Shown here: piece by piece, positions 3,616-31,750 of the stretch
How the letters are laid out: every line of letters begins with the position of its first letter
Numbering within the stretch: the stretch's first letter is position 1
Assembly: GCA_964291315.2 (NCBI GenBank)
Contig: OZ219750.1
Location: forward strand, 320,001-384,000
Length of the DNA: 64,000 nucleotides
Origin: Candidatus Poribacteria bacterium
GTDB taxonomy: Bacteria; Poribacteria; WGA-4E; WGA-3G
Reading direction: 5' to 3'
Notes under the pieces: generated by a model
Told to the model about the DNA's origin: nothing
The model's input: only the letters and a program-made list of their open reading frames with translations
Databases searched by the model: none
Position numbers and translations under genes: made by a program

Positions 3616-4039
3616 ATTTCGACCGGGGGTATTTAGTTTTAAAATTTCTCACTGACTGTATGATTTTAACATTAGGTGATTGTTAAACAAAAAAAAGATC
3701 CTTCGTGGTCTTGACCATTGTAACAGTTTATACAGTTTAGGGGCAATCTGAGTTATGTCTAGAAAAATGTCCGATAAATCGGCACGTGAAAAAGCAAGCT
3801 GGCTCTGCTTAGGTCAAAAATAATAAATGTAAAAAAAATAGGCGAAGAAATACAGATACCTGCTCATAAGAGAAAAAAGTCGTTTATTTCGCAGAAAAGT
3901 GTTATAATCTATTATGAGGATTTCTTTTGGAACAACATTTGATGGCTTTATTTTACCACAAAGTTCTCTTTGGACAACATTGTTAATTCTCTATCAATTC
4001 ACATTACCTCACACATGAAGACAAAAAGGACACACCTGT

Positions 4040-6053
4040 ATGTCAAAGAAAAGTTTCGACCAAAAACTGATTAATCTTCTCGAAACCAACCCTAACTTTG
4101 TTGATGATAGCGGAGCACTCCATCGCCCGAGCGTCAGGCAACGGGCTTGGAAACTCGACCCCGAGCTCATTCGGACCCTGTGTACCGACGAAGAAATCGC
4201 GGCGAAGTTCTTCAAAGAGATAGCGGGGCGTTGGATCTTCGATAACAACACCTTCGTTGATTATATCACGGATAAGAACTTCTTCGCCGACTCCTACACC
4301 CAGTTCCGCAATAGAATCGGCTTGAACATTGATGGCAAGTATCTGCGCGAGCGCGGGGAAGTCGCCCTGGTCTGGCCGTATAAGGATTGCGTATTAGAAG
4401 GCGGTCAGACGCGCGAAGAGGAGAGGCGTGAAGAGATATTTTTCAACGAGGTTCTGGCGCCGGATGAGATAGATCGTATGTTTGATGCGAAGGTTCTGAC
4501 GTGTTGGGAGCGTCATGCTGTTAGGAGTATGGGAGGAGAGGTTGATAAGAGCGGGGGGGGTAATCTGTGATAAGCATATAGAAAACGGAAGCCTCGAACT
4601 GAATAGAGATGATGCTGGCGTTATTCGTGAGAACCTTGTCATCAAAGGCAACAACCTGATTGTCCTGCACACCCTTAAAGAACAATTTCGCGGGCGGGTC
4701 AAACTTATTTACATCGATCCACCGTATAATACCAAAGGAGATGCTAACATTTTTGGATATAACAATTCTTTCAATCACTCAAGTTGGTTGACATTTATGA
4801 AAAACAGACTTGATATTGCTCAAGATATGTTATCAGAAAATGGAGTAATAGTTGTTACCATAGATGATTATGAATATGCTCACCTTAAATTGCTATGTGA
4901 TGAGGTTTTCGGCATAAACAATTATATTGGAACTATAGTAATCCAAAACAAGCCAGGTGGTAGGACAATAAACCCCCATTTTGCTACCTGTCACGAATAC
5001 GCTTTATTTTACGCGAAAGCTATTGATAATATAAAAACAAACCTTGTCAAACTCACTAAACAACAAGAGCTGAGCTTCAACTTTAAGGATCAGATTGGCA
5101 GATATCAACTTTCACCATTTAGGCGGGGTGGAGGCTATTCAACACCTGAAGAGAGACCTAATTCTTTCTATCCGATTTACTATAATCCACATGGAAATGA
5201 ATTTTCTCTTAAGAAAAAGGAAGGATTTTTTCAAATTCTCCCCAAAGATTCACACGGGAAAAACCGAGTTTGGCGGCAGACAAAACCCTCTTTTGAAAAA
5301 TTAGTGGAGAAAGGGGAAATCGTCTGTAAAAAGTCTAAAGGCAAATGGAGCTTGTACATAAAGGATCGGATGCCAGAAGGACGGAAAACTAAAACGATAT
5401 GGACTGATTCAAAATATGACGCGTCAGCACATGGAACAATACTTCTTAAAAAGATGTTTGATGGTGAGAAAGTCTTCAGTTATCCTAAATCGATTCATGC
5501 CGTAAAAGATACTATTAATCTTCTAACTCAGCCCAACGATAAAGATATTGTGCTGGATTTCTTTGCGGGTTCAGGCACTACAGGGCATGCGGTGTTAGAG
5601 CTGAATAAAGAGGACGGTGGCGCTCGGCAGTTTATACTTGTAGAACAATTGGACAAGCACATAGCTGTTTGTAAAGAACGACTTGAGAAAGTCATTGAAA
5701 AAGAGGGGCTCCTCGGAGCAAATTTTGTCTCGTGTGAGCTGATGCCTTACAACGAAGTCTTCATGGAACGGATCCAGTCGGCGAACACCTCTGCCGAGCT
5801 ATTGAACATCTGGCACGATATGTCAGAAGATTCCGCTCTCAATTGGTACGTCACCCCGGAGCATCCAGAGGCGGCAGAGGCACACTTTATCGCTATCAAC
5901 GACGTTGAGGGACAGAGGCGGCTATTAGCCGAGCTGTTGGATAAGAACCAGTTGTATGTGCATCTCTCTGAAATAGAGGACGAAACATTTCAGGTCAGTG
6001 AAGCAGACAAAACACTCAATAAGAATTTTTATGAAGGAGATCACGATGCCTAA
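4040..6053 (+). CDS. mod: Type III RM methyltransferase (Mod) allele B, frameshifted at a G8 tract (4553-4560)
   Basis: ORF 4040-4570 plus overlapping +1 ORF 4515-6053 with IDPPY and DFFAGSGTTG. Its stop overlaps the res start (ATGCCTAA). Confidence 0.92.
4553..4560 (+). repeat. Poly-G (G8) phase-variation tract in mod B
   Basis: AGC GGGGGGGG TAATC; G7 gives the in-frame S-G-G-V-I-C-D-K. Confidence 0.85.
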
Positions 6054-8649: not shown

Positions 8650-8675
8650 ACATCAAATGTATCAGGAGGGGTACG

Positions 8676-9527
8676 ATGGTAACACGTGAGCAGACCGACT
8701 TTTTTCACGAAAACGGATATGTCAAGTTTGGCAGGGTTTTAGATAACGATGGCGTTGAAGCGATGCGGGCAGGATTGGATGCAGTCATTCAGCTGGAGCT
8801 TGCTGCAGGCGATGATTCGTCCCCGGAGTTCAAGTACGGGCATGATCGCGGCGGAGATAGACTTAATCGAGGGGGTGGGCACCCGCGGGCGATTCACCAA
8901 TACATTAATATGTGGAAGCGTGATCCGCGCTATGAGGCAGCTATTCACCATCCGCTCATTGCAGGTACAGCCCGCGCCTTGTTAGATACTCCGGAGGTCC
9001 GCCTTTGGCACGATCAGGTTATCTCCAAGCCGCCTCACGACAACGGGCACTTCGGATTCCATCACGATTTTTTCTTTTGGCCCCTCAGCCCACCGAACAT
9101 TGTCAGCTGCTGGCTAGCGCTTGATGACGCAACAGTTGATAGTGGTTGTATGCACGTTATGCCGGGGAGCCATAAAGACCAACGTTTCTCTGTCGCAGCA
9201 CGAGCGACAGCAGAAGCGGCAGCGGTGAAAGCGCGCGAAGAAGGACGTGAACTGCCGGTCGACCCGTGGGCGGAAAGACGAAATTTGGACATCAGCCACG
9301 GGATTCCCGTAGAATTGGAGGCAGGCGAATGCATGTTCCACCACTGTCTGAATTTCCACGGCACGCCGCCGAATGTCACAGCGCGTCAACGGCGCGCGTT
9401 CGTTATGATTTTCATGGCTCAGGATGTCTGCTTTAACAAGGTGCAGTCACCGAACCATGTGCTTGTTCCAACAATAACGGTTGCGGATGGAGAACCGCTT
9501 GTCGGAGACGGATTTCCGGTAGCCTAG
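8676..9527 (+). CDS. Phytanoyl-CoA dioxygenase (PhyH) family protein
   Basis: F.ENGY start, HHD (HxD), WLALDDA..DSGCM.V.PGSH, and distal H..P.N...R. Confidence 0.9.
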   Translation: MVTREQTDFFHENGYVKFGRVLDNDGVEAMRAGLDAVIQLELAAGDDSSPEFKYGHDRGGDRLNRGGGHPRAIHQYINMWKRDPRYEAAIHHPLIAGTARALLDTPEVRLWHDQVISKPPHDNGHFGFHHDFFFWPLSPPNIVSCWLALDDATVDSGCMHVMPGSHKDQRFSVAARATAEAAAVKAREEGRELPVDPWAERRNLDISHGIPVELEAGECMFHHCLNFHGTPPNVTARQRRAFVMIFMAQDVCFNKVQSPNHVLVPTITVADGEPLVGDGFPVA

Positions 9528-9561
9528 CTTTGTAACGGATTTCCGGTAGCCTAGCTTTGTA
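9508..9561 (+). repeat. Perfect 27-bp tandem duplication spanning the phyH stop codon
   Basis: ACGGATTTCCGGTAGCCTAGCTTTGTA at 9508-9534 and 9535-9561. Confidence 0.9.
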
Positions 9562-9619
9562 CAGGATCTGTGTTACAAACCGCATCTACAGCACAGGAAG
9601 CGAGGCGAGAGGTGATCAG

Positions 9620-10825
9620 ATGAAAGATTCAACGTTTATAACAAGGGTTCAACTGAAAAATTATAAGAGTATCGCGGCATGTGATGTGCAGATGCGGTCT
9701 TTGACGTTCCTTGTAGGGCGCAACGGTTCAGGGAAAAGTAATTTTCTTGATGCCCTACGTTTCGTTGCCGATGCGTTGAATCTATCACTGGACCACGCTG
9801 TACGCGACCGAGGTGGTATTAGCGATGTGCGCCGTCGCTCTCGTGGGCACCCAAATCATTTCAATATTCGTCTTGAATTTGCTCTGCCTGAAGGCTCTAC
9901 GGGCCACTACACTTTTCAAATCAGGACGCGTTCACCTGGCGGTTACAAGGTCCAAGCTGAAGAGTGTAAGATTCAGAACAAGCTGTCCCTTATGCCGGAG
10001 GAATACTTTTTTGTTGATGAGGGTACCGTGACGCGCAAAAGTGTTGATGTAGCCCCGGCGGCGGCTACTGATAGACTGTATTTGGTAAACGCTTCTGGTT
10101 TGCCCGAATTTCGCCCTGTCTATGAAGCGTTCTCTCAAATGGGATTTTATAGTCTCAACCCCGAGAAGATTCGTGATCTGCAGGCACCAGATTCCGGCGA
10201 TATGCTCCTTCGTGACGGGAGTAACTTAACAAGTGTGCTTACTCGGCTTTCGCCCACCGTAAAGAGGGACATTGAACGATATCTTGCACGAATTGTTCCT
10301 GGGGTTCATACGGTAGATGTCAAAAATTTTGGACCGAGGGAGACATTGGAGTTCAGACAAGTTGTCACGGGGGACAAACACCCCTGGAAATTTCTTGCGA
10401 ATAATATGTCTGCCGGTACACTCCGCGTATTCGGAATTCTGGTAGCACTATTTCAAGGGCGGTGTGATGTCCAAAAGCATGTACCCCTTGTCGGCATTGA
10501 GGAACCAGAGCTGGCCCTCCATCCGGCAGCTGCAGGGGTGCTGCTTGAGGTACTTCAGGATGCTGCTCGCAAGACGCAAGTTATCGTCACCAGTCACAGT
10601 CCGGATTTGCTCGATGATAAACACTTGGATCTGGAATCGATTCTTGCAGTCGAGGCGCATGAGGGAAATACGGCAATCGCTCCTATAGACGAAGTAGGGA
10701 GGTCTGTATTGCACGATCGACTCTATACAACAGGGGAACTCCTTCGGCTTGATGAGCTACGACCTGATCCAACTCGGGCATCTATAGGTGATAAGGCGGC
10801 CGGAAAGCAGCTTGATTTGTTCTAG
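9620..10825 (+). CDS. AAA_21/AbiEii-like ABC-type ATPase, putative defence component
   Basis: LKNYKSI, GRNGSGKSN Walker A, MSAGT signature, IEEPE..LHP Walker B, and TSHS H-loop. ATG at 9620 follows GAGGTG. Confidence 0.88.
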   Translation: MKDSTFITRVQLKNYKSIAACDVQMRSLTFLVGRNGSGKSNFLDALRFVADALNLSLDHAVRDRGGISDVRRRSRGHPNHFNIRLEFALPEGSTGHYTFQIRTRSPGGYKVQAEECKIQNKLSLMPEEYFFVDEGTVTRKSVDVAPAAATDRLYLVNASGLPEFRPVYEAFSQMGFYSLNPEKIRDLQAPDSGDMLLRDGSNLTSVLTRLSPTVKRDIERYLARIVPGVHTVDVKNFGPRETLEFRQVVTGDKHPWKFLANNMSAGTLRVFGILVALFQGRCDVQKHVPLVGIEEPELALHPAAAGVLLEVLQDAARKTQVIVTSHSPDLLDDKHLDLESILAVEAHEGNTAIAPIDEVGRSVLHDRLYTTGELLRLDELRPDPTRASIGDKAAGKQLDLF

Positions 10826-10867
10826 GCTGGTAAAGCGGAGTCAAATCGAGCGTAAAGGAAATATTGA

Positions 10868-11506
10868 GTGGCGGTGAAAATTAGTTGCATTGTTGAAGGG
10901 GATAGTGAATTGGAATCTGTACCTGTCCTGATTAGGCGGGTCTCAGCGATGTGTTATCCTGGTGTGGCGCTTGTCATCCCACGACCTATCCGCATTCCCA
11001 GAAATCGGGTTATTAAAATCGGTGAACTTGAACGAGCAGTTGAGTTGGCTGCTCGGAAGATCCGGAGGCAGGGAGCTATATTTATCATCCTTGATTCTGA
11101 TCGTGATTGCCCGGCGCACTTAGGACCGAAGCTGCTTCAACGGGTTTTACGAACTCATCGAAATCTGCCGGTTGCCGTTGTGCTTGCAAAGTGCGAATTT
11201 GAGGCATGGTTCCTCGCAGCAGCTGAGTCCCTTCGTGGACAAAGAGGGTTAAGAAGCAATATCTACGCGCCGAACGATCCGGAGGCGATCTGTGGGGCAA
11301 AGGAATGGTTAAGTCAGCATATGCAAAATGGGAAAACTTACAAATCAAAGCGCGACCAACCCGCACTCGCAGCGATTTTTGATATAGAGCAGGCGCGTCG
11401 ATCCAATTCGTTTGACAAGTGCTACCGGGAGATCGTTCGTCTCCTCGGCGAGCTGCGAGAACCAGTTAAAATAACCAGTAAATCAATAAGGCAGCTAACA
11501 AAGTAA
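10868..11506 (+). CDS. DUF4276-like TOPRIM-type protein, partner of the ATPase
   Basis: IVEGDSE, LDSD.DCP and EFEAWFLA motifs; directly downstream of the ATPase. Confidence 0.8.
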   Translation: MAVKISCIVEGDSELESVPVLIRRVSAMCYPGVALVIPRPIRIPRNRVIKIGELERAVELAARKIRRQGAIFIILDSDRDCPAHLGPKLLQRVLRTHRNLPVAVVLAKCEFEAWFLAAAESLRGQRGLRSNIYAPNDPEAICGAKEWLSQHMQNGKTYKSKRDQPALAAIFDIEQARRSNSFDKCYREIVRLLGELREPVKITSKSIRQLTK

Positions 11507-11524: not shown

Positions 11525-12928
11525 ATGGAAAACAGACCGAACGTCATTTTTGTTCTAACTGATGATCAGGGCCCTTGGGCTGCTGGATGCTGTGGCAACG
11601 ATGAGGTGAGGACCCCTCATTTAGATCGATTGGCATCGGAAGGCACTCGGTTCTCAAATTTTTTCTGCACAAGCCCTGTCTGCTCGCCTGCACGCGCCAG
11701 TCTTATGACGGGGCGTATTCCCTCAGCACACGGCGTACACGATTGGATTCGGGACGGAAATATGCCTCCCGATCGTGCGCGATATCTGGATGGGCTCACC
11801 TGTTATACCGATGTTTTAGCCGATAATCATTATAAGGTCGGATTGAGCGGGAAATGGCACCTTGGCGATAGTTTGACACCACAACACGGTTTCAGCCACT
11901 GGTTTGCTTTACCGACCGGCGGCAGCAAATACAACGACGCAGATATGATCCGAGAGGGAGAGGTTGAGATGCAACCTGGCTACCTCACTGATGTCATCAC
12001 CGATGACGCGTTGGATTTTATCTCGACCAACAAGGATGGCCCGTTCTATCTCAGTGTCAACTACAACGCGCCGCATACCCCTTTCACGGGGCACCCGCAA
12101 GACATCGTTGACTCTTATGACGATTGTCCTTTTAAAACGTGTCCACAAGAGGCACTGCATCCGTGGGCGGTGCAGGGGGCAGCTGTTCATATGGGGAACC
12201 GTGAGTCATTGAAAGGCTATTTTGCAGCGATAACAGCGCTTGATTTAAACGTTGGGCGGATTCTTGATAGATTGGCGGAGCTCGGGATCCGTGAGAATAC
12301 CCTTGTTGTTTTCAGTAGTGACAACGGTTACTCGTGTGGACATCACGGGTTTTGGCATAAAGGGAACGGAACGTTTCCGTTGAATATGTATGAGAACTCG
12401 GTTAAAGTCCCGTTTATTGTAAGTCAACCGGGTAGGATTCCAGAGGGACGCGTCAGTGAGTCGATGGTTAGCCAGTATGACTTCATGCCGACACTCCTAG
12501 GTTATCTCGGTCTGCCTGATCCGAATGACGATATGTCCCCGGGCAGAAGTTTCGTTCCGGCGCTTTCTGGAGAAACAGACGAAGCGCAAGCCGAGATCGT
12601 CATTTATGATGAATACGGTCCTGTCCGTATGATTCGTACGCAAGAGTGGAAATATGTGCATAGGTACCCGTACGGCCCCCATGAGCTCTATGATCTCATG
12701 AACGACCCGGGTGAACGAAAAAATCTCATAGATGAAAAGTCACAGAGCTCACGGATAACCGACATGCGGCAACAGATGGGGGCATGGTTCCAGCGATATG
12801 TCTTGCCTGAATTAGACGGGGCAAGATGTTCTGTTAGCGGCGGTGGACAGGCTGCGAGAATTGAAGAAGGACAGTGTAGCGAGGGTGCGTTCCATCCAAG
12901 GTATGCACCCCCTCAGCGCAATGTGTAG
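11525..12928 (+). CDS. Sulfatase (formylglycine-dependent)
   Basis: PNVIFVLTDDQG, CSPARASLMTG, GKWHLG, SDNG. Confidence 0.95.
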   Translation: MENRPNVIFVLTDDQGPWAAGCCGNDEVRTPHLDRLASEGTRFSNFFCTSPVCSPARASLMTGRIPSAHGVHDWIRDGNMPPDRARYLDGLTCYTDVLADNHYKVGLSGKWHLGDSLTPQHGFSHWFALPTGGSKYNDADMIREGEVEMQPGYLTDVITDDALDFISTNKDGPFYLSVNYNAPHTPFTGHPQDIVDSYDDCPFKTCPQEALHPWAVQGAAVHMGNRESLKGYFAAITALDLNVGRILDRLAELGIRENTLVVFSSDNGYSCGHHGFWHKGNGTFPLNMYENSVKVPFIVSQPGRIPEGRVSESMVSQYDFMPTLLGYLGLPDPNDDMSPGRSFVPALSGETDEAQAEIVIYDEYGPVRMIRTQEWKYVHRYPYGPHELYDLMNDPGERKNLIDEKSQSSRITDMRQQMGAWFQRYVLPELDGARCSVSGGGQAARIEEGQCSEGAFHPRYAPPQRNV

Positions 12929-21990: not shown

Positions 21991-23256
21991 ATGAATATTA
22001 CTGTCTGCAATCCGTTGTTGAGAACCCCATTGTCCCTTATTGTTGACGATTCGTGTCCGGTAATCAACCTCACGTATTATTGGATACACCAGCGACACGC
22101 TTGGAAATCACGTCACCAGCCCGGCGTTCCACCAGAACGTTGGGAGGGCGCTGCTGCTCAACTGAAAAAGATACCCCCCTCAATCCCCGCTGATTTTGCT
22201 TATGAGTGGGCGGAATGGTGTTGGGAAAACGGTGTAAAAGGCAAATTTAGTCTCGTTCCATATCCTGCCGGGGTCGGACGTGTCGATGAAGGGTTCCCCG
22301 ATTTCCCAGCATACGAGTATCAGGCATGGCTGCGGATTTACCGAGAGATCATCTGGCCAAACTTCGATTTAACGCCGGAGATGCTTACCCATACTGCTGT
22401 CGTTGATCTGGATACATTCACGCTCACCGATGCGTGGGAACAGGTGGAATGGGTAGATCCGCCGGTTGATAACAGACTGACGGACTACATCATCACAGCG
22501 ATGGAAATGCTTGATAATGTCGGTATTCCTTGTGAGGGCGTAACGAGTCCCGGGGCGTTCGGAAAACGCCAAGAGGCTGCGTATGCGAAAGCTGTGCTAA
22601 CTGCTTCACAACACGTCAATAATAACCCGCGTCCGTTCTATTTTCTCTGGCTCAAACATGATGAACTTCCGGATATCCCTATCTGGTATGCTGAAAAAGA
22701 GAAAGGCATCGCTATTGCTAGTGTTGTTTCGTGTGCGGGCGACTGGTTCGGCGGTTGGACGGGCTACGATTTGGGCGATGCTGACCGATTCATTACCGAA
22801 GACGGACAAGGCGGCCGGCTGCCACCGATCCTCGAAAAGGAACTTCCGTGTGTCCTTGTCGGACACTGGCCAGGGTTCTATTTCAACGGTGAAAAAAGTG
22901 GATTTGAGGTGCTGAAGACCGTTAAAGCACGACTCGATAATTATGATCCGGACAGCACCAAAACAATCTGGATGAAACCCTCGGAGATCGCTCACTATTG
23001 GATGGCACGCCAACTCACTGATATTAAGACGCTTGAGCCTCCAACGCGGATTGACCTCTCCACGCAATTCCCGACAGAAAATTTCACACTGGCTATCGAG
23101 GCACGCCTCCGACATATCCGAATCAACGGTTGGGACCTGCGCCAAGTATATGCTCTACGTGACTTTCAGAAAGATACTTTTCTGCATGACGGGCAGCAGA
23201 CATTCGTCGCCTTTGACTTGGAAGTCGGGGATACGATTCTTGAGTTGATACTATAG
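21991..23256 (+). CDS. Conserved hypothetical protein (possible deacetylase-like fold)
   Basis: 421-aa ORF; SLIVDD, KGKFS.VP, PEM.TH and HWPG motifs. Confidence 0.6.
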   Translation: MNITVCNPLLRTPLSLIVDDSCPVINLTYYWIHQRHAWKSRHQPGVPPERWEGAAAQLKKIPPSIPADFAYEWAEWCWENGVKGKFSLVPYPAGVGRVDEGFPDFPAYEYQAWLRIYREIIWPNFDLTPEMLTHTAVVDLDTFTLTDAWEQVEWVDPPVDNRLTDYIITAMEMLDNVGIPCEGVTSPGAFGKRQEAAYAKAVLTASQHVNNNPRPFYFLWLKHDELPDIPIWYAEKEKGIAIASVVSCAGDWFGGWTGYDLGDADRFITEDGQGGRLPPILEKELPCVLVGHWPGFYFNGEKSGFEVLKTVKARLDNYDPDSTKTIWMKPSEIAHYWMARQLTDIKTLEPPTRIDLSTQFPTENFTLAIEARLRHIRINGWDLRQVYALRDFQKDTFLHDGQQTFVAFDLEVGDTILELIL

Positions 23257-23353
23257 CGGTCTTTGTATTCCTGTTTATAGGACGAGAGGCGTTTATTACC
23301 TGTTTGGTCTGCATATTGGCAACGGAGATCGGGATACTGGCTGCCGACAGCTC

Positions 23354-24103
23354 TTAGGGAATAAGGAGGCGTCCCCCGCTTGCGATCACCGTCGAGCCGG
23401 TCATATAACTCGACTCCTCGCTTAAGAGGAACACGATAACGTCGGCCATCTCTTGCGGTTCACCCAGTCTGCCCAGGGGCGTGGTGGACCGAAGCTGCTC
23501 CACCATTTCTGGCGACACCTCACTTAACATGTCCGTTGCAATTGCGCCCGGTGCCACCGAATTGATGCGGATGTTATGGCGTGCTAGCGGTCCGCAACAG
23601 GATTTCGTGAGAGAGATAATTCCGGCTTTCGCCGCTGCGTAAGGCAGTTGATCCGGGCGAACTGCCAAGGCAGCGATAGAGGAAACATTAACGATACGTC
23701 CAAACTGCTGTGCGATCATCCCGGGTTTAACTGCCCATAGCACATTGAAGGGCCCCGTCAGGTTAATCGCGATAATCCGATCCCAGTGTTCAGGGGTGAG
23801 CTCTTCAAACTCTATATCGCCCACATCCCCGGCATTGTTCACTAATACATCTATCTGTCCAAATTCTTGGGTCACTGTTGTGACCATCTTGTTCACGGCT
23901 TCTCTATCGGCAATATCTGCCTGCACCGGTAGTGTCTGTTGTCCGAGGTCTCGGATCTGCTCACAGACCTCTTCTGCTTTGGCAGCTGAGCGTGAGTAGT
24001 GGACAGCAACCGTCGCGCCTTCCGCTGCCAGTTTAAGTGCTGTCGCCTTTCCGATACCCCGACTTCCGCCGGTTACCAACGCGACCCTTCCCTGGAATTT
24101 CAT
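23354..24103 (-). CDS. SDR family oxidoreductase (FabG-like)
   Basis: TGGSRGIG, NNAG, YAAAK. Confidence 0.93.
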   Translation of the reverse strand: MKFQGRVALVTGGSRGIGKATALKLAAEGATVAVHYSRSAAKAEEVCEQIRDLGQQTLPVQADIADREAVNKMVTTVTQEFGQIDVLVNNAGDVGDIEFEELTPEHWDRIIAINLTGPFNVLWAVKPGMIAQQFGRIVNVSSIAALAVRPDQLPYAAAKAGIISLTKSCCGPLARHNIRINSVAPGAIATDMLSEVSPEMVEQLRSTTPLGRLGEPQEMADVIVFLLSEESSYMTGSTVIASGGRLLIP

Positions 24104-24152
24104 CGGCCCTCACCAACCCTCCGTATGATAACATTTTGATTTGCGTTCTTTA

Positions 24153-24181
24153 AATATACCGCAAGCGCCAACGCAAGTCAA
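24153..24181 (-). promoter_or_regulatory. Sigma70 promoter for the SDR gene
   Basis: TTGACT-17-TATATT on the minus strand. Confidence 0.55.
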
Positions 24182-24394
24182 TATCTAAACATGTCAAACC
24201 GGGTATACAGTTTTTGATTGAGGTGTGCTTGCCAGAAGTGCCGCATTGTGGCATAACCTGTTGGGTTGTGCTTCTTCCTGATTCAGAGAGTCTGTTTCTA
24301 AACTATTACCCACCTCTTTGCCAATTTCTTAAAAAAAGCAAATTTTTTTTGCCTCGATGACCTTTTCTGTCATTTTCAAGGTCTTGTTGTATGA

Positions 24395-24952
24395 ATGGAC
24401 GCAAAAGACCTTGAAAACATCTCAGATAACGTTTTACTCGCCCGGATTCAAAACGGAGATGATGATGCACTTGTAGCCCTCATTGAAAAATATGAGCGGC
24501 TCCTCAAGACTATTATCTACTATGAAATCGGTAATCCCGAGGAAAAAGCGGATATTTATCAAGAGACCGTCCTCGCGATTGTGCGGCGGATCCGCAGGCA
24601 AGCAGAGGGAATTCGTTCTGTTAAACAGTGGGTAAAACAGATAGCGCGTAGTAAGTGCAAGGCATTCCTAGTAGATGCCAAGAAACGTGGCATCGTCAGG
24701 GACTGGGCTGAAGATTACTATGCCCTCAGGACTGATCAGCAGGAACAAAAGTCTGAAAACGTTGATCAAATTTTAGACGTGGTCGAGGAGATGGGTTCCA
24801 TTTATGTAGAGGTTGTTGAGTTGTGGGCGGACGGACTGACGGAGGCTGAATCAGCAGAAGTGCTGAATATTTCGCCAAACACCGTAAAGTCTCGGCGGAA
24901 CAAGATACGAAAGGTCGCCCGTGAACGTTTCGGTGTGTCGGTTTCCAAGTAA
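24395..24952 (+). CDS. ECF-type RNA polymerase sigma factor
   Basis: Region 2 (GD.DA...L..KY, DIYQE, WV..IA) and region 4 HTH (E.AEVLNIS.NTVKSR). Confidence 0.88.
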   Translation: MDAKDLENISDNVLLARIQNGDDDALVALIEKYERLLKTIIYYEIGNPEEKADIYQETVLAIVRRIRRQAEGIRSVKQWVKQIARSKCKAFLVDAKKRGIVRDWAEDYYALRTDQQEQKSENVDQILDVVEEMGSIYVEVVELWADGLTEAESAEVLNISPNTVKSRRNKIRKVARERFGVSVSK

Positions 24953-24954
24953 TT

Positions 24955-25133
24955 TGGTTGTACCGTGACTCAACTGAATAAACATTGACTAGATTTTAAG
25001 ATTGACAATTTTTCTATAAGGTGTTAACCTAATTGGCAACCTCGCTTTTTTATTTCTGATTAGGTTGGCATCCTATTTTACATAGGTGTGAGCTTTTTCG
25101 GTTCGCCCCTTATATCACAATAAGCGGATTGCT
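24955..25133 (+). repeat. Copy 1 of a conserved promoter plus structured-leader element
   Basis: TTGACA(25002-7)-17-TAACCT(25025-30); matches 30196-30370 and 33684-33814. Confidence 0.85.
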
Positions 25134-25206
25134 AGCGAAGGCAAAATTTTCCTTTTTACCATCTGATAGCAATTCCTTTAAAGATAAAATGTTAGGAGAC
25201 CTTCCA

Positions 25207-25590
25207 ATGATCAGAAGAAAAAGAAACATTCTTGTATCGCATCTTCTATTGCTTGTTTTGTTCAGCACCCCTTTTCTAATGATTTGCTCGATACAAGAGG
25301 CGGATGCTTGGTTCATGCACCAGACCAATTGTAGGTCGGAATTCGAAATCGGGGCTTCTGCCGGTGCTGAAATCGATAAATTTGGGCCTAAGGCCAAAGC
25401 TGAAGCCAAAGTGAGTTTTAAGGTTGTGTGTGATACGGAGTTTCACTGGAGTCCCTTCCCACACGGCGACGATGATGATGACTCCTCTTCCGGAAGTTGC
25501 GACGATGACTCCTCCGGGAATTACAGCACGTCTCCGTGGTGCCTTAGATGCAGCGGTTCGATACACGTGGGACGATGTCCGGAGTTTTAG
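25207..25590 (+). CDS. Small secreted Cys-containing, Asp/Ser-rich peptide (127 aa)
   Basis: AGGAG RBS, basic and hydrophobic signal peptide ending EADA, DDDDDSSSG/DDDSSG repeat, C-terminal CxxC..H...C. Confidence 0.7.
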   Translation: MIRRKRNILVSHLLLLVLFSTPFLMICSIQEADAWFMHQTNCRSEFEIGASAGAEIDKFGPKAKAEAKVSFKVVCDTEFHWSPFPHGDDDDDSSSGSCDDDSSGNYSTSPWCLRCSGSIHVGRCPEF

Positions 25591-25670
25591 TATTCCTCCA
25601 AAGGAGATTGGTGTATATACTGTGAGGAGGAACATTGGAGCTGTAATTTCGGTACCGGTTTGGTAACGCC

Positions 25671-25692
25671 GGTGAAATGGATTCACCTTTTT
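25671..25692 (+). terminator. Intrinsic terminator-like hairpin after the peptide gene; a second longer hairpin lies at ~25697-25731
   Basis: GGTGAA-atgga-TTCACC-TTTTT, then CTCGGAGCGTTTCCT...AGGAACGTTCCGAG. Confidence 0.5.
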
Positions 25693-25780
25693 CAGCCTCG
25701 GAGCGTTTCCTTGAAACAGGAACGTTCCGAGATCACAACGACAACAGTATGTTAGCGTTTTTTATTTTTTATCTGAGTTT

Positions 25781-25915
25781 ATGAGCGAGATAGATCTGTT
25801 CCTACAGAGATTAGATGACCTTCTCATCTTCCTCTCCATTGTCTTTGGAGGGTTTATCATAGGTTTTTTCCTCCTCGTGTGGCTGGTTTTATGGTTCTAT
25901 AAGAAACGTAGGTAA
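25781..25915 (+). CDS. 44-aa single-TM peptide (below the ORF track cutoff)
   Basis: MSEIDLFLQRLDDLLIFLSIVFGGFIIGFFLLVWLVLWFYKKRR*; acidic N-terminus, TM helix, basic C-tail. Confidence 0.5.
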   Translation: MSEIDLFLQRLDDLLIFLSIVFGGFIIGFFLLVWLVLWFYKKRR

Positions 25916-26008
25916 AACGTCTATGCGGGAAATCGCAATATTTTGACAGAAAAGGAGGAAGACTGTCTTTGGTTGAGTCAATTCAATATGGACAGTCCCA
26001 AAATGTAA

Positions 26009-26860
26009 ATGAGATTTCTAAATGTGTGTCTATTCATTTTTATGCTTTGTGGTATTGGTCTCTATGCGGTTCACCCGCATGCAGATCATTCTGCTACATC
26101 TGGTGATCATACCGTGCTCTATAAAGGTTCCTCCGCCCCTTGGCAAACAGAGCTGCAAGCGTTTCAGAAACTTCTGAAGACGGACGCTTCCGCTGCGAGG
26201 GCCGAACTTCATGCCTTTGCTGAAAGAATCTTTGGAGACCATGCACTCGTTGAAGAATGGGTGCCCCTCTACTTCCGGATCCGAAAAGACGGTACCACCC
26301 ATCTTTCTGATCTCAAGCGTGTCTCGGAACTCGAAATTCGCATGCTGGAGCGTATTGATCCGGAAAAATATGCCGAGCAGATACAGCATCACCAAAAAAA
26401 GATCAAACGTTCGAGTGTTTCTCGTCAGAAGGGAAACGAGTCTGCTCCAACGGGAGCCCTCAAAGGCCAATGGAGTTCTCCTACCCTGACGGCATTTGAA
26501 AGTGGCGGTGAATTTTTCATCAACTTTGTTAACTTGTTGACTACGGACCTGAAAGCCGCGCGCGCCGAACTCAACAAGTATGCGTCTCAGCGATATGGAG
26601 ACCATCCGCACAAGGCAGAATGGACTGAACTTGTCTTTCGCAACTTCCGCGACAAAAAATCCAAGATTTTGGACTTGATGCGGCTGTATGAGTTGGAAAA
26701 GCAGATGCTGACAGACATTGACCCTGAAAAGCATGCCGATGGAATAAAAAATCTTGAGCGAATCATTAAAATCCACGAACGTCTGCAAAGAAATTTTGAA
26801 CGTCAAGGGACACCTAACCCAACCATCGGTGTTGAGTTTAATCTAACAACAGAAGATTGA
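26009..26860 (+). CDS. Exported hypothetical protein with two copies of a ~90-aa helical domain
   Basis: Signal peptide; internal repeat AARAEL...GDH...W...ML..IDPEK. Confidence 0.75.
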   Translation: MRFLNVCLFIFMLCGIGLYAVHPHADHSATSGDHTVLYKGSSAPWQTELQAFQKLLKTDASAARAELHAFAERIFGDHALVEEWVPLYFRIRKDGTTHLSDLKRVSELEIRMLERIDPEKYAEQIQHHQKKIKRSSVSRQKGNESAPTGALKGQWSSPTLTAFESGGEFFINFVNLLTTDLKAARAELNKYASQRYGDHPHKAEWTELVFRNFRDKKSKILDLMRLYELEKQMLTDIDPEKHADGIKNLERIIKIHERLQRNFERQGTPNPTIGVEFNLTTED

Positions 26861-26877
26861 GAAAAAAGGAGTCAGAG

Positions 26878-27612
26878 ATGAAATCTATGACCACACTCTT
26901 CCGCGTCGGTAGTGTGATAGTGCTTATTTGCATAGGGGTTTGGCTTTACGTCGAGTGGGATCTGAAACGGTTTAGGGAATCGCTACCCTCCTCGTCTCAG
27001 AGAACTGACGAACGCTCGCTTGAACACTTCGCACCCGCCGTCTCCGAAGGAGAACGGAATGGAACAGGAGCCGCTTCATCCGCCGAACTTGACACAGCGC
27101 CTATAGACCGAGACACCGGGGTACTTGAAAGCGAAAGCCGCGTTGCTAGCACTGAGACAGATGTGCTTTTTGATACAGATCCACAATTCAGAGAAGCCCT
27201 TCTTCCCGATGCGGACCTCCCGGAGGTGTCCAATGGAGATGGACCCCGTGAGGCCCCGTACGACTTGATGTTCGTCAAGGCGGGATATGCAGATTACAAC
27301 GCCTATCTGAATACTGATCCCGAATATGCTTACCGAAGGCTTGACGATGCGTTCCGCGAACAATTCGGTGATTCCCCCGATGTTGACATTCTGCTTGAAA
27401 GCGTTCGCCGCTACAATGAAGGCCCCGTGCCAATAGACACGGCAATTCGGTTCGCGGAGGCACAGTTACGACTTCTCTCCAAGTTCGGGTATCCTGAACC
27501 TATAGCAGTACTCCAAGATCACATTGAGATGCTTCGAGAAACGCGGCAATACGGCTTGGAATCTGGGGAGGAAGTTCTCTATCAGAATAACTACCGCTTT
27601 GTATCGGAGTGA
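26878..27612 (+). CDS. N-anchored hypothetical protein with an acidic linker and one divergent copy of the same helical domain
   Basis: AAGGAG RBS, N-terminal TM helix, TDPEYAYRRL...FGDSP. Confidence 0.7.
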   Translation: MKSMTTLFRVGSVIVLICIGVWLYVEWDLKRFRESLPSSSQRTDERSLEHFAPAVSEGERNGTGAASSAELDTAPIDRDTGVLESESRVASTETDVLFDTDPQFREALLPDADLPEVSNGDGPREAPYDLMFVKAGYADYNAYLNTDPEYAYRRLDDAFREQFGDSPDVDILLESVRRYNEGPVPIDTAIRFAEAQLRLLSKFGYPEPIAVLQDHIEMLRETRQYGLESGEEVLYQNNYRFVSE

Positions 27613-27615
27613 CGG

Positions 27616-27975
27616 ATGAAACGTTTGTTTGTTTTTTTGAGTTTAGTGCTTTGCGTGGCGGGTGTCGTTTTTTACTTACCGCTGCGTGACTCTGCTCCCT
27701 CAAAAATTGCACCCCTGTCAAATCAAGATAAGAGAGACATCCTCGAAAATCAGACGACACCTTCCCAGGAAAAGGAATGTGCGTGCTGCCAATCCACATT
27801 AGAGAAGATAAAACGTAAGCGGCAGGCACTAGAAATGTGGGCTCGGGAGAGGATCAACATGTATGGGTACGAAGAAGGAATGAAGCGCATCTCGGAGAAA
27901 TCGGCTACATTGGCAAAACGGATGCAAACCCTCCTTGAAAAAGAAAAAGATGCTAACGGATTCCCCGCTCCGTAG
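27616..27975 (+). CDS. Small N-anchored hypothetical protein (CACC motif)
   Basis: 119-aa ORF in the operon; a paralogous fragment lies at ~31248-31306. Confidence 0.65.
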   Translation: MKRLFVFLSLVLCVAGVVFYLPLRDSAPSKIAPLSNQDKRDILENQTTPSQEKECACCQSTLEKIKRKRQALEMWARERINMYGYEEGMKRISEKSATLAKRMQTLLEKEKDANGFPAP

Positions 27976-30022
27976 AGAAAAAACGTCCCTGTTTAGGGGC
28001 ACATTTTTTTTCATGAGCGCATGGGTGTTGATCTTTGCTGTTCTAATGCTCGCCTTCTGGATCCGTATCCAAGGCGTAGCGCAGCTACCGGAGGGTCAAT
28101 TCACCGAGACCGATGCCTATTTCTACTACTGGCAGGCAGAGCTTATTTCAGAACACGGGCACCTCCCTGCCCGCGATATGCACCGCTGGCTGCCCGTCGG
28201 TAGAGATTTAGGGCAGACGCTGAATCTCTACGGTTACGTCCTTGCTTATGCTCATAAAGCTGTTGCAGCGGTTTTTTCGAAGGTCACGCTCTACCATGTG
28301 ACTGTGTATTTGCCAGTTATCTGCTTTTGCGTCGGGCTCGCGGGGCTCTGTCTTTTTCTTTACCACATCTACGGTCCCCTCTTTTCGAGTGTCGTTGGTG
28401 TGCTTTTGGCAACGCTACCTGGCAGTATAGAACGCAGTGCTGCCGGTTTCGGGGACCGGGACGCTTTTTGTCTGATGCTCGGCCTCCTTGCTGTCCTTTC
28501 ATATCTTGCCGCGCGACACGCCGAAACGCGACGCAGTCGCCTGATTTGGACCCTTACCAGCGGATGTTTTGTCTTTTTAGGCGGCATCAGTTGGGAAGGG
28601 TTCGGTGTCTTTACCAGCATCATAATTCTCGTTGAGATATGGCGTTTTCTCACATCCGAAAGAGAAGAAGAGTTCGGTCTGTACGCCCTATGGGTGCTCC
28701 TCTTCGTTCCAACCCTGTACCTTGTCTCTCCAGCCTATCGGAACGGATATGGTTTCGCAGAACACCTCTTTGCGTTTGTGCTTGTGCCTCCGGTTGTGCT
28801 TCTGGGTCTCCGCGCACTCCGAAAACAGCTGCTTGTCAGATCGGAAAAACTCCGATCACATGCCCCGACTTTGTCCCTCGTTTTGATACTTGCTAGTCTT
28901 GCAATTACACTCGTCTATGTTTGGGGTCAATTGGACACCTTCGCCGATACCACTGTCCCGCTGAGTAAGAAACCTGTCATGCAGGCGATGACAGAACTCC
29001 GGGCACCGCATGCCCGTTATTGGACTGCTCGTTATGGCTGCGTGTTTATTGTAGGAAGTCTCGGCTTTGTCCTTATACCATTTTCGCTCTGGAAAAAGCG
29101 GGGTCTCTTCTTGTCTATACCGCTAGCACTCTTTACGGCTACTTCCTTCTACCGTGCCTCGTTGGAGAACGTGTGGGGGGAATCTTTTGGGAATGCCCTC
29201 TTCGGTAGTGCTATTGTGGTATGTCTACTCATACTTATGTTTTTCCCGTGGCAGCGAAAAAACAGTGAAGGCCCGTCAGAACTTGTTTCTATTGCCTTCA
29301 CAGTGTGGTTTATTGCTTGGGTCGCGCTTTCCCGCGATGCAAAACGTTATGACTTCTTTATCGGGGTTGCCCTTGCCTTCGGAGCAGCAACGTTCATAGG
29401 AACGTTTTCAAAAATCGTTCTCAATAAAATCAGAGTGCGAACGAAGTATCCACACTCTCTGCGTTACCTAAGAGGCAGCATCACAGCTTTGTTACTCATC
29501 GTTGTTATGTTCTTTCCTTCGCCTTTCGGGCATGCCAATCGGTCAATATATGCAGCAACTCGGATGCGAAAGGCTCTCCCTGGCAGGACAGTGATTGCAG
29601 AAGCCTTCCGTTGGATGAACTCAAATCTGCCGCGTGATGCTATTGTCGCAGCAGATTGGCGTTACGGCAGCCAACTCAACGTACTCGCCGGTGTCAAAAC
29701 TATTATAGATCAAGACACCTACATACAAGACTGGATACATCTTTACCATAAACATGTTGTCTATTCGAGGACCCAACGCGAGGCTTTGGAATTCTTGAAA
29801 ACCCACGGAGCAACACATCTGATGTTAGTCGGACAACATCCTGCGAAGCATTTCCTCAGGGGGCACCCCGGCGATGCGTTCGTTCCAGTCTATCCAAGAA
29901 ACAACTTTTCTGGTGCAACACTAAACCTCTGGGAGCTCCACTATCCCCCGGACATCCAAACCGATCCGAAATACCTGAAAACCGGTTTCCAAGAGATAGA
30001 TGCAGCATTACAACGACACTGA
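27950..30022 (+). CDS. STT3/AglB/PglB-like oligosaccharyltransferase (GT-C) with a variant catalytic motif
   Basis: Many TM segments; E.DAY.YY, ..RS.AGFGD.D, and W+..NLP.DA.V...W.YG.Q (DWRYG in place of WWDYG). Confidence 0.75.
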   Translation: MLTDSPLRREKTSLFRGTFFFMSAWVLIFAVLMLAFWIRIQGVAQLPEGQFTETDAYFYYWQAELISEHGHLPARDMHRWLPVGRDLGQTLNLYGYVLAYAHKAVAAVFSKVTLYHVTVYLPVICFCVGLAGLCLFLYHIYGPLFSSVVGVLLATLPGSIERSAAGFGDRDAFCLMLGLLAVLSYLAARHAETRRSRLIWTLTSGCFVFLGGISWEGFGVFTSIIILVEIWRFLTSEREEEFGLYALWVLLFVPTLYLVSPAYRNGYGFAEHLFAFVLVPPVVLLGLRALRKQLLVRSEKLRSHAPTLSLVLILASLAITLVYVWGQLDTFADTTVPLSKKPVMQAMTELRAPHARYWTARYGCVFIVGSLGFVLIPFSLWKKRGLFLSIPLALFTATSFYRASLENVWGESFGNALFGSAIVVCLLILMFFPWQRKNSEGPSELVSIAFTVWFIAWVALSRDAKRYDFFIGVALAFGAATFIGTFSKIVLNKIRVRTKYPHSLRYLRGSITALLLIVVMFFPSPFGHANRSIYAATRMRKALPGRTVIAEAFRWMNSNLPRDAIVAADWRYGSQLNVLAGVKTIIDQDTYIQDWIHLYHKHVVYSRTQREALEFLKTHGATHLMLVGQHPAKHFLRGHPGDAFVPVYPRNNFSGATLNLWELHYPPDIQTDPKYLKTGFQEIDAALQRH

Positions 30023-30476: not shown

Positions 30477-31142
30477 ATGCTAAGAAAAAAGTTTTACATT
30501 CCAATCGGACTCGGGATCCTTGCGATAGCTGCGATAGGTTTCCTGTCTCTACGCTCGGATGTGTCAGATGGACTAGTTAAGGTTTACAAAGCAACCAAGC
30601 CCGTTGCTAGATCATCGGGTTCATCCTCCGCTGCCACCGTAAAAACGTCATTTTCTGCATCGCCTCCACTAGATACTTATGAAGCAGGACACGAGACACC
30701 CCTGTCTGGGAGTGCGTCTGATACTTATACAGATAGTGAACCGCAGGGTAACGAGGAGATCGAGATTGAACAGTTGCGGGCTGAGGTAGCTGATTTGAAA
30801 AAGATTATCGCAGAAAAGCGTGCAATCCTTACAGAGGTTAAGAACTTTAATGCGTGGGTAGAACGAGTGGATCTACGGTCTTCTTTCTCGGAGCTTTTGT
30901 CTTTACGTTCTTTACCTACAGAGGAGATTCGCGAGAAGTACTCTGCGGCGGAATTTCGGGCGATTGCCGTTGATAATGCCTCGCGCTTCAATGCGATTCG
31001 CGACGAGTTTTTGACTCGCGTTGAAAATTACTCACCCGGGGCAAGAGCTATCATTTATGAGCAGATTCATTCGGACCCGGTGTCGAGTCAGATCTACCGT
31101 GATTATATTGAAAACCCATGGGTAGATGGGGTACCGAAATGA
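30477..31142 (+). CDS. N-anchored hypothetical protein with a Ser-rich linker and coiled coil
   Basis: AAGGAG RBS, N-terminal TM helix, V.VYK motif shared with the 34148 protein. Confidence 0.7.
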   Translation: MLRKKFYIPIGLGILAIAAIGFLSLRSDVSDGLVKVYKATKPVARSSGSSSAATVKTSFSASPPLDTYEAGHETPLSGSASDTYTDSEPQGNEEIEIEQLRAEVADLKKIIAEKRAILTEVKNFNAWVERVDLRSSFSELLSLRSLPTEEIREKYSAAEFRAIAVDNASRFNAIRDEFLTRVENYSPGARAIIYEQIHSDPVSSQIYRDYIENPWVDGVPK

Positions 31143-31310
31143 AAATTCTTTGGAAATCCGCTATCCTATTATCTTTGGCGTTTTTGATAGTTTGCTTCTC
31201 TGCTTCAGAGGCGGATGAGGAGGTTGAGATATTGAAACGGGACCTTAAGAGCAGATAAGACGTAAGCAGCGGGCACTCGAAATGTGGGCTCGGGAGAGGA
31301 TCAACTTCAT
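31139..31310 (+). pseudogene. Degenerate remnant that includes a paralog of 27616-27975
   Basis: Signal-peptide ORF MKILWKSAILL... stops early. An out-of-frame EQIRRKQRALEMWARERIN matches EKIKRKRQALEMWARERIN. Confidence 0.6.
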
Positions 31311-31331
31311 AGGGGTCTTTTTCGAGACGTT

Positions 31332-31750
31332 TTACTTCGTCGGTCTCGGTAAAAACAGTTCAAAGTCGAGGGACACTTTTACTTTCTCGGTTTCAAGAGA
31401 TCCTTGTTTTTTGAGTAGTTTCTCGAGGCTCTTGAATTGTTTCAAAGTGTTTTCGGTGGCTTGAATCTGTTCTTTATATGTTTCGGCATCTGTTTGCTTC
31501 ATTAACTGAAGGTGCAGCGTTGTGAACGCAATCGTATCTGGATAGGTGGCCATTTCCTGAGTGGCGACTTTCAACAAAGCATCGACGAATGATTCGGCGA
31601 GCGGGTTGTTGTTGTATTGCTTTGCGACGTGTTTGATGAGTAGTTTGCGCGCGGCATCGGGATCGCGTGCGTAAAATGCTTTAAAATCGTTTTCTTGAGG
31701 GTTGCCGCGGCTTTTATGAGAAAAACAGCGTGGAAACCCGCAGTTTGAGA
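31332..31750 (-). pseudogene. 5'-disrupted paralog of the 26009 helical-domain protein
   Basis: Frame is open upstream of the listed ORF: DFKAFYARDPDAARKLL...YNNNPL...LMKQTDAETYKEQIQ. No in-frame start precedes the stop at 31752-54. Confidence 0.6.

Follow-up and report, generated by a model that had tools for sequence, protein, structure and literature searches.

An STT3-family transferase with an altered WWDYG motif in a recurrent cassette of Candidatus Poribacteria

The stretch of DNA described here, 64,000 nucleotides from a Candidatus Poribacteria bacterium (assembly GCA_964291315.2, contig OZ219750.1, positions 320,001–384,000, forward strand; hereafter "the window"), carries a gene cassette built around a membrane transferase of the STT3 type. 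The region is one copy of a multi-copy cassette which, in this analysis, was seen in Poribacteria only. Judged by sequence, the residues that serve catalysis, metal binding and lipid-phosphate binding in oligosaccharyltransferases (OSTs) are all kept in the transferase. Its clade appears to descend from enzymes bearing the WWDYG motif and has given up the part of that motif which reads the +2 Ser/Thr of the N-x-S/T sequon. The explanation we favour, tentatively and at slightly less than an even chance, is that an active GT-C transferase with an acceptor other than N-x-S/T modifies one or more exported proteins encoded beside it.

The STT3-family transferase and its altered motif

The transferase matched the Pfam family STT3 (PF02516) over residues 55–298 with 51.2 bits, against a cut-off of 24.5 (E 1.9e-13), and many of its relatives carry a precomputed PF02516 annotation. 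In a phmmer search of the Protein Data Bank (PDB), the best match was mammalian STT3A (E 1.6e-10), with the Asp of external loop 1 (EL1), the D-x-D/E motif and the WWDYG region aligned. When an AlphaFold2 (AF2) model built with 23 homologues (pLDDT 72, pTM 0.77) was compared with PDB structures by Foldseek, the top 19 matches were all STT3, AglB or PglB (E 3.8e-13 to 5.6e-8; TM-score 0.42–0.59, normalised to the query). They were followed by DPY19 (E 2.5e-7), AftA, ArnT, ALG12, Pmt4, ALG9 and AftD. A profile of the transferase alignment (A1) was less informative than the single-sequence search; it matched the C-terminal domain of yeast Stt3 alone among PDB sequences (E 6.8e-5). The best NCBIfam match was TIGR04154 (archaeo_STT3), at 54.6 bits, far under its cut-off of 450. 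By sequence and by model, the protein is a true member of the STT3 family with a predicted STT3/AglB/PglB fold, and the STT3 identity proposed in an earlier note on this DNA held up in both the profile and the fold searches.

Relatives were collected by scanning one genome per GTDB species. This returned 165, of which the best 80 loci were kept; the full-length copies among them are the 76 tips of the tree used below. According to PMC7226087, OST catalysis involves an EL1 Asp, an Arg and a D-x-D/E metal site, an EL5 Glu and a phosphate-binding Arg. The candidate counterparts here (numbered by the 669-aa form of the transferase) are D34, R141, D148, D150, E328 and R445, and all six were invariant in the 23 sequences of A1. 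D34 lies opposite the Asp of 'EFDPYF' in STT3A (D56 of PglB, D49 of human STT3A), and its equivalent was found in 75 of the 76 copies, the one without it being truncated at the N-terminus. D148-R-D150 lies opposite 'DNE' of STT3A and, together with R141, matches R147, D154 and D156 of PglB; the DRD was present in 76/76. E328, within 'AMTEL', was also kept in 76/76; since the STT3A alignment stopped short of that loop, its assignment as the EL5 Glu (E319 of PglB; TIXE/SVSE) follows from position and context. R445 is conserved at the position expected for phosphate binding. The stretch opposite STT3A 'DNNTW' reads 'DQDTY' and is kept in the clade; it falls in the DK/MxxI region, with the Lys/Ile position unassigned. 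The C-terminal periplasmic domain of OSTs is retained as well. The GT-C catalytic acidic residues on which the earlier note's proposal leaned (D34, D148, D150 and, by position and context, E328) are therefore in place, and, because the catalytic and metal-binding residues are strictly kept across 76 copies, we argue that the enzyme is active.

The picture at the acceptor side is different. In OSTs, the Asp of WWD hydrogen-bonds the +2 Ser/Thr of the sequon (PMC7226087). Alignment with human STT3A placed DWRYG of the window transferase opposite WWDYG, confirming the substitution given in the earlier note, and WWD proved to be altered across the whole clade. Of the 76 copies, none retained the first W, one retained the D, 75 the second W and all 76 the G; at the Tyr position, 74 had Y, F or H, one had S and one had D. 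The motif in the clade is reduced to x-W-x-[YFH]-G.

A hidden Markov model (HMM) search of 1.84 billion cluster representatives returned 1188 at E ≤ 0.001 and 217 at E ≤ 1e-30. The 150 best matches were inspected for WWDYG, and 70 of them were full length. Exact WWDYG was found in 23 of the 70, all of them distant (E 7.6e-94 or weaker), and in not one of the 16 closest. With a WWDYG-bearing relative (P0164) as query, a homologue search gave 22 proteins, including one labelled Candidatus Poribacteria with the motif WWHYG. It is because distant relatives keep WWDYG, while the closest ones and the 76 copies do not, that we read the clade as descended from WWDYG enzymes.

Cassette layout and recurrence in Poribacteria

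Genes in the window and in the other loci were called as longest open reading frames (ORFs), and export signals in all proteins were judged by a simple hydrophobicity window alone, so that export is throughout a prediction. Every credible gene called between 24395 and 31142 lies on the + strand (Table 1), as the earlier note had described for its one-direction cassette. The first of these genes encodes an extracytoplasmic-function (ECF) type sigma factor, which scored 53.3 bits against TIGR02937 (cut-off 42.9) and is the likely regulator of the cassette. From its TTG start, the STT3-like gene overlaps the gene before it by 41 nt, so that the overlap reported earlier is present. The start at 26878 given in the earlier note is an internal ATG of the 26857–27612 ORF; the anchored hypothetical protein itself exists, and hydrophobic N-terminal segments were detected in all three hypotheticals placed between the small gene and the transferase.

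Table 1. Features of the cassette and its downstream flank (window positions).
Feature	Position	Strand	Basis
ECF-type sigma-70 factor, 185 aa	24395..24952	+	Pfam Sigma70_r2 E 5.1e-9, Sigma70_ECF 4.8e-6
Small Cys-containing protein, predicted secreted, 127-aa precursor	25207..25590	+	ORF; no family match
Two hairpins 3′ of the small gene	25671–25687, 25697–25731	+	fold analysis
44-aa hydrophobic ORF, doubtful gene	25781..25915	+	ORF call
283-aa protein, hydrophobic N-terminus	26009..26860	+	ORF call
251-aa membrane-anchored protein	26857..27612	+	family clustering, AF2 model
119-aa membrane-anchored protein, K-x-C-x-C-C	27616..27975	+	alignment A2
STT3-family GT-C transferase, 695 aa (TTG 27935) or 669 aa (ATG 28013)	27935..30022	+	Pfam, Foldseek
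221-aa membrane-anchored protein, C11-related	30477..31142	+	hhalign
Decayed frame-shifted copy of the 119-aa CxCC gene	31118..31370	+	tblastn

Domain scans found no glycan-assembly gene in the cassette, in keeping with the earlier note, and no gene for assembling or flipping a lipid-linked oligosaccharide (LLO) among the 10 + 40 window ORFs scanned. GT2, CDP-alcohol transferase, MacB and C39 genes were found nowhere in the window by domain scans or by tblastn with the neighbour families. Rfam gave nothing at the gathering score across the whole window, and PADLOC recognised no defence family among the eight cassette proteins, its sole match being of the helix-turn-helix type, in the sigma factor. 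Promoter-like sites were given no weight because 4 were found in the window against 9.7 in shuffles.

Downstream of the transferase, the 221-aa protein was matched by the profile of a family, C11, that elsewhere lies upstream of STT3-like genes in other cassettes (hhalign probability 92% over 92 columns). Beyond it, residues 63–96 of the 119-aa protein match positions 31249–31368 (52% identity, E 2.4e-7, tblastn), and the hydrophobic N-terminal ORF of this remnant is in another frame than the 40-aa matching stretch. The C11-like gene and the remnant look like what is left of a second cassette that lost its transferase. A convergent murA-like gene follows.

Seventy-nine of the 80 loci are labelled Poribacteria and one 'uncultured bacterium', and the named close relatives of the transferase are all Candidatus Poribacteria. 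Several genomes hold at least 3–6 copies (at least six in VYCT01, at least five in CBDAUI01 and at least 3–4 in others); these numbers are lower bounds because only the best 80 of 165 relatives were kept. Such multiplicity accords with the specialised OST paralog that the earlier note had in mind.

Neighbours were clustered from −5 kb to +3 kb around the STT3-like gene in the 80 loci, and the clusters were labelled by Pfam and NCBIfam. The usual order is a regulator, a small Cys-rich secreted protein with a hairpin, one to three anchored helical proteins, the STT3-like enzyme and, often, a CDP-alcohol transferase. A same-strand gene lies no more than 300 nt upstream of the STT3-like gene in 62 of the 74 loci with enough sequence, and 44 of these 62 encode N-terminally hydrophobic proteins; 47 of the 74 have at least two such upstream genes within 2.5 kb. 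Small Cys-rich secreted families occur in 12, 11, 8 and 7 loci, together with many singletons, and the family C1, which includes the CxCC proteins, in 27/80, C11 in 10/80. The linkage of the transferase to small secreted Cys-rich and anchored proteins in one-direction cassettes, first noticed at a single site, therefore recurs across 80 related loci.

Most loci also have a regulator. A sigma-domain protein lies within the same limits in 45/80 loci, in some cases fused to a WD40 or BNR propeller, and a sigma-54 activator in 21/80. Regulators in most loci, the sigma–propeller fusions, and genes after the sigma gene that encode single-pass membrane proteins would suit a signalling module, in which an ECF sigma/anti-sigma unit works at the surface with the anchored proteins as anti-sigma factor or sensor and the STT3-like protein as a non-catalytic sensor or scaffold. 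We consider this most improbable. At E ≤ 0.1, the five downstream proteins showed no anti-sigma domain, and their cytoplasmic N-termini are just a few residues long. That the catalytic and metal-binding residues are strictly invariant over 76 copies speaks, moreover, for an enzyme that is active.

As an observation in its own right, the fusions include proteins of ~950–990 aa in which an N-terminal ECF sigma factor (regions 2 and 4) is joined to BNR/Sortilin-type propellers; there are also related WD40 proteins of ~650 aa. They are found at L019, L026, L044, L049, L050, L060, L062, L064, L065, L067, L068, L071 and other loci, adjoining one STT3-like clade together with a 94-aa SNase-like gene and a sigma-54 activator.

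In the tree of 76 copies, the main cassette groups each formed a clade of their own, with their own motif: AA[REGDS]W[GSN][FYS]G in the cys15/MacB clade, AANWS[FY]G or AA[HD]WN[HY]G in cys7/C1, A[AT]DWI[HY]G in cys8/p251, AAHWPYG in the C39 clade and AAHW[GA]YG in cys13/C11. Cassette content can also change in place. One locus (L020; CBDAUI010000001.1, 2257159–2275132) is syntenic with window positions 21991–30022, and its 421-aa protein, SDR and sigma factor are 82%, 86% and 69% identical to those of the window. Between the two STT3-like genes the identity is only 53%, and they fall in different clades; at L020 a single unrelated 111-aa Cys-rich secreted protein lies between sigma gene and transferase. 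These comparisons suggest that the cassette was replaced downstream of a conserved sigma gene. Because the flanks are 82–86% identical while the transferase is at 53% and the intervening genes were replaced, cassette content appears to turn over faster than its surroundings.

Elsewhere in the window, adjoining N6/N4 DNA methylase genes (461–1996 and 4515–6053, +) are followed by a ResIII helicase/restriction subunit (5998–8649), an AAA_21/AAA_15 ATPase (9557–10825) and a DUF4276 protein (10868–11506, +); the stretch 461–11506 looks like a restriction-modification and defence-type island. Sulfatase genes lie at 11525–12928 and 54565–56076, and two tandem ~940-aa paralogs with Lamin Tail Domains (PF00932, E ~1e-23 each) at 56506–62321 (−).

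Candidate acceptors, donor and competing explanations

We infer that the small Cys-rich protein encoded in the cassette is the most likely substrate of the STT3-like enzyme. In the window this is a 127-aa precursor whose basic N-terminus leads into a hydrophobic stretch; 'EADA' comes next, and the remainder carries six Cys and has an acidic, Ser-rich tail that contains SGSC. Its gene has AGGAG 8 nt before the ATG. The protein had no match in Pfam or NCBIfam and no homologue in a word-indexed protein search or in the 80 loci. At the same position, other loci encode small secreted Cys-rich proteins unrelated to it. Across the cassettes these proteins have 85–165 aa and N-termini resembling ordinary Sec signals or anchors, and in the families cys15 and cys13 the N-terminal parts are conserved and the Cys-rich C-terminal, mature parts highly variable. 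The secreted Cys peptide of the earlier note stands as to its predicted export and its six Cys; at 127 aa, however, the precursor is better called a small protein. A type IV pilin-like identity for the small proteins was also considered, and was dropped as they lack a class III signal of the G-F-T-L-x-E type.

The hairpins noted earlier near the small gene were found, and the feature recurs in other loci. The first is followed directly by TTTTT, and a T-rich run lies at ~25757–25771; the whole 195-nt spacer after the 127-aa gene folds at z = −2.2. Behind small secreted genes, 32 of 45 spacers reached z < −2 (median −3.5); behind the other upstream cassette genes it was 29 of 104 (median −0.96), a difference with a Mann-Whitney P of 3.6e-7 (mononucleotide shuffles; the loci are related). 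The 44-aa ORF beyond the hairpins, which the earlier note listed as a transmembrane (TM) peptide, is indeed hydrophobic, but its status as a gene is doubtful. None of the 80 loci encodes a relative of it, its family matches were all sub-threshold (none below E 0.001), and a Shine-Dalgarno sequence cannot be seen before it; it may not be a gene.

Small proteins with conserved N-terminal regions and variable Cys-rich mature parts, especially in cys15 and cys13, bring to mind bacteriocins and other ribosomally synthesised and post-translationally modified peptides (RiPPs). Operons that make a structural peptide in excess commonly show such a hairpin directly after the small gene. On such an account the small protein would be a toxin or pheromone matured by the STT3-like enzyme, the anchored proteins or the 44-aa ORF would serve immunity or peptide handling, and copies would diversify in the crowded sponge microbiome. 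Peptidase_C39 with DUF1573 directly upstream in 5 loci, MacB/FtsX in 15, and the cassette replaced at the syntenic site all agree with it. We nevertheless regard it as quite unlikely, and it is in any case a special case of the explanation we favour. Genes for a C39 peptidase, an exporter or a recognisable immunity protein are all missing from the window; the N-termini resemble Sec signals or anchors and not double-glycine leaders; the products are larger than most RiPPs; and Pfam and NCBIfam scans matched no known bacteriocin family. With neither leader peptidase nor exporter in the window, the RiPP-like layout that the earlier note saw here is an analogy and goes no further.

The remaining cassette proteins may be anchored helpers. 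The 283-aa protein contains two tandem helical 'FGDxP' domains of ~82 aa, 46% identical to each other over 82 aa (E 1e-22), and is weakly related to the profile of the 251-aa family, p251 (hhalign 61%, E 8e-5); it had no Pfam or NCBIfam match, and an Atlas search gave no usable match. Around the start of its gene (25953–26106, +), a strong Shine-Dalgarno-like AAGGAGGAAGA is placed ~8 nt before TTG 25969, which opens a 45-aa ORF out of frame with the 283-aa gene; no ribosome-binding site is visible before ATG 26009. In the 251-aa protein, a disordered linker joins a TM helix to a C-terminal helical bundle with an FGDxP motif. Members of its family (alignment A3) are encoded in 23/80 loci, upstream of the STT3-like gene at a median distance of 116 nt. 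Its AF2 model has pLDDT > 85 at residues 147–231, and Foldseek found 0 PDB matches to the model at E ≤ 0.001. One sub-branch of this family, of ~200 aa and with lipoprotein-like 'SGC' N-termini (L054, L056, L069, L073 and L079), lies directly upstream of the STT3-like gene and has a strongly conserved segment, 'DDPDNPSPHNPL[IV]K[KR][FY]GDIPEVRTY'; it is paired with an ~800-aa STT3-like clade with the motif A[AT]DWI[HY]G.

The 119-aa protein has a coiled-coil tail, and its family (A2, 18 sequences) has invariant K53, C55 and C58 and a nearly invariant C57. Family members lie directly upstream of the STT3-like gene, often overlapping it by 16–55 nt. Co-folding of the transferase (A1) with the 119-aa CxCC protein (A2) scored 0.00 against a mark of 0.32 and was counted neither way for binding.

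The earlier note had rested its case for glycosylation on sequons in the exported products. All five that it named exist (NYS, NES, NLT, NGT and NQT), but they are not enriched: the window cassette has 5 N-x-S/T against 2.9 expected (P 0.15, 2000 composition-preserving shuffles), and cytoplasmic neighbours are as rich in them (the sigma factor has 2 and the 421-aa protein 3). In 59 related small secreted proteins, 49 were counted where 54 were expected, and the observed number was reached in 795 of 1000 shuffles. With frequencies at background, the sequons are no evidence for N-glycosylation of the cassette proteins; nor is a classical sequon expected, since the Asp that binds the +2 Ser/Thr is lost in 75/76 copies. 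These results bear on the most literal form of the earlier proposal, a standard OST that acts on N-x-S/T, including that of the neighbouring exported proteins. The STT3 fold with the full catalytic set and at least one sequon in each of the four larger exported proteins speak for it, yet here the Asp of WWD is Arg, the first Trp is found in no copy, sequons are at background in both the window and the small proteins, no LLO-assembly genes lie nearby in the window, and several divergent copies per genome would be unusual for a housekeeping OST. Ordinary N-glycosylation is thus very unlikely, and like a pure signalling module it fits the data poorly.

A different feature of the small proteins stood out. 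Acidic or Ser-rich runs ending in Cys occur as SGSC in the 127-aa protein and as SGSCDSGSC, SSDGC and SEEC repeats elsewhere. The pattern 'three of S/D/E/G, then C' was found 38 times against 6.3 ± 2.5 in shuffles, in 21/50 loci. Per 1000 aa, the small proteins have 5.1 such sites and other neighbours 0.13.

We propose the following course of events. The sigma factor would switch the cassette on, and the hairpin may keep the small protein in excess over the products of the downstream genes. The STT3-like enzyme would then move a group, most likely a sugar, from a lipid-phosphate donor to one or more of the co-encoded exported proteins, outside the cytoplasmic membrane and at a site other than N-x-S/T. 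The anchored proteins, the CxCC protein among them, could act as accessory or presenting factors. The donor for the window copy would be made by genes elsewhere in the genome.

Other loci carry genes that the window lacks. A CDP-alcohol phosphatidyltransferase (PF01066) occurs in 27/80, its start at a median of 3 nt past the STT3-like stop, with pgsA, archaetidylinositol phosphate synthase and ClsA as best NCBIfam matches, all under cut-offs. MacB/FtsX permeases occur in 15/80, Peptidase_C39 with DUF1573 directly upstream in 5/80, and an AglJ/PpgS-like GT2 near the STT3-like gene in 5/80.

The adjacent CDP-alcohol transferase is the best argument for the main rival, in which the enzyme modifies an envelope lipid or polymer. 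Instead of a protein, its acceptor would be, for instance, the head group of a membrane lipid, a polymer of the cell wall or a polysaccharide at the surface, and its lipid-phosphate donor would arise via the CDP-alcohol transferase. The same sigma factor would also control the small and anchored proteins, which would be envelope proteins with an accessory or regulatory part or with no relation to the enzyme. The weak NCBIfam matches of the adjoining gene are to phospholipid-head-group synthases, and loss of WWD fits an acceptor other than a sequon peptide. In addition, lipid and polymer GT-Cs (ArnT, AftA and AftD) appear lower in the Foldseek list, and ECF sigma factors commonly control envelope functions. 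We nonetheless judge envelope modification somewhat unlikely. By far the closest structures are the protein modifiers STT3, AglB and PglB, and then DPY19; the second W, the G and the OST C-terminal periplasmic domain are retained; and the window copy has no adjacent CDP-alcohol transferase. It also leaves unexplained that each clade has its own small Cys-rich family and hairpin, and that 15 loci have MacB and 5 have C39, both peptide-export-type genes.

Several points weigh against modification of a co-encoded protein, the explanation we prefer. Donor, acceptor and chemistry are all deduced, sequon counts are at background in the window and in the 59 related small proteins, and window scans and tblastn found no donor-synthesis gene, CDP-alcohol transferase or exporter with the window copy. 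Having no detectable relative, the 127-aa protein is equated with the small proteins of other loci by position, size, export signal and Cys content only. The S/D/E/G–Cys class, the one candidate for an acceptor feature shared by the small proteins, is a lead and not a test, because it was defined after the sequences had been viewed and its carriers are related. Vertical inheritance of duplicated cassettes can yield both linkage and clade matching without any enzyme–substrate relation, and, because the loci are related and not independent, the counts and P values overstate the support.

A bolder version, which we hold to be unlikely, is that Poribacteria have an extracytoplasmic system of protein modification not described before. 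The copies would form a radiating STT3-derived family in which the N-x-S/T reader was swapped for clade-specific acceptor pockets, each enzyme with its own fast-evolving small Cys-rich secreted protein and a non-classical modification. A sugar or a phospho-alcohol group might, for instance, be attached to Ser, Cys or Asp in the acidic/Ser-rich Cys motifs, and the donor would depend on the adjacent CDP-alcohol phosphatidyltransferase. If so, the family would be a GT-C-based counterpart of RiPP and glycocin maturation, and it might serve surface variation or interaction with the host or neighbouring microbes.

Relation to known systems

What defines the OSTs of all three domains of life is the WWDYG motif together with the N-x-S/T sequon. 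The STT3 enzyme family is known, and the cassette-linked variant with the lost WWD appears, from the sequences compared, to be new; no publication tying Poribacteria to STT3 was found in the open-access literature, most subscription journals lying outside that scope. If our explanation is correct, a radiation of acceptor motifs clade by clade would make the retargeting range of the OST scaffold directly testable. It could also offer new single-subunit transferases for glyco-engineering, and a further protein-modification system would become known in a phylum that is uncultivated and poorly understood and has many sponge-derived genomes.

With PglB, AglB and STT3 (CAZy GT66, PF02516), the window transferase shares, by its model, the GT-C fold and C-terminal periplasmic domain, as well as the EL1 Asp, the Arg and D-x-D metal site, an EL5-like Glu and a putative phosphate-binding Arg. 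Similar to PglB and AglB, it appears to be a single-subunit enzyme. Archaeoglobus fulgidus has multiple AglB paralogs in its genome, similar to the poribacterial copies (PMC3703281). In contrast to these enzymes, the poribacterial transferases have x-W-x-[YFH]-G, lack sequon enrichment and, in the window, an LLO-assembly cluster, and share their cassettes with anchored helical and small Cys-rich secreted proteins and, often, with a CDP-alcohol transferase.

After the OSTs, the next best structural match was the C-mannosyltransferase DPY19 (E 2.5e-7). DPY19 and PMT are examples of an STT3-like scaffold that works with a monophosphate-linked single sugar and an acceptor other than Asn. The window transferase differs from them in that its sequence family is STT3, and no acceptor pattern of the WxxW or Ser/Thr-rich kind was noticed, with no test aimed at one. 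A further likeness is to the AglB paralog associated with archaeosortase A: TIGR04154 was the best NCBIfam match of the transferase, and NF038086 and other archaetidylserine synthase models were among the weak matches of the CDP-alcohol transferases. From these matches, taken as a lead only, both systems would pair an STT3 homologue with a CDP-alcohol phosphatidyltransferase in the processing of surface proteins. All the scores are, however, far under cut-offs, and no archaeosortase, exosortase or PGF-CTERM-like signal was seen in the window.

In the eukaryotic OST, Ost3 and Ost6 are oxidoreductase subunits. The cassette resembles this arrangement in that the gene for a small membrane protein with a Cys motif (K-x-C-x-C-C) adjoins that of the catalytic subunit, and, by analogy, the CxCC protein could hold Cys-containing substrates by mixed disulfides. 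It differs from Ost3/Ost6 in sequence and fold, and family scans found no thioredoxin domain in it. Finally, the glycocins sublancin and glycocin F, which are S- or O-glycosylated, also place a small secreted Cys peptide beside a dedicated glycosyltransferase for a modification on a residue other than Asn. Glycosylation there falls to soluble GT2 enzymes, which draw on nucleotide sugars in the cytoplasm, whereas the poribacterial enzyme is a membrane GT-C predicted to act outside the membrane, on small proteins that would be larger and carry ordinary export signals.

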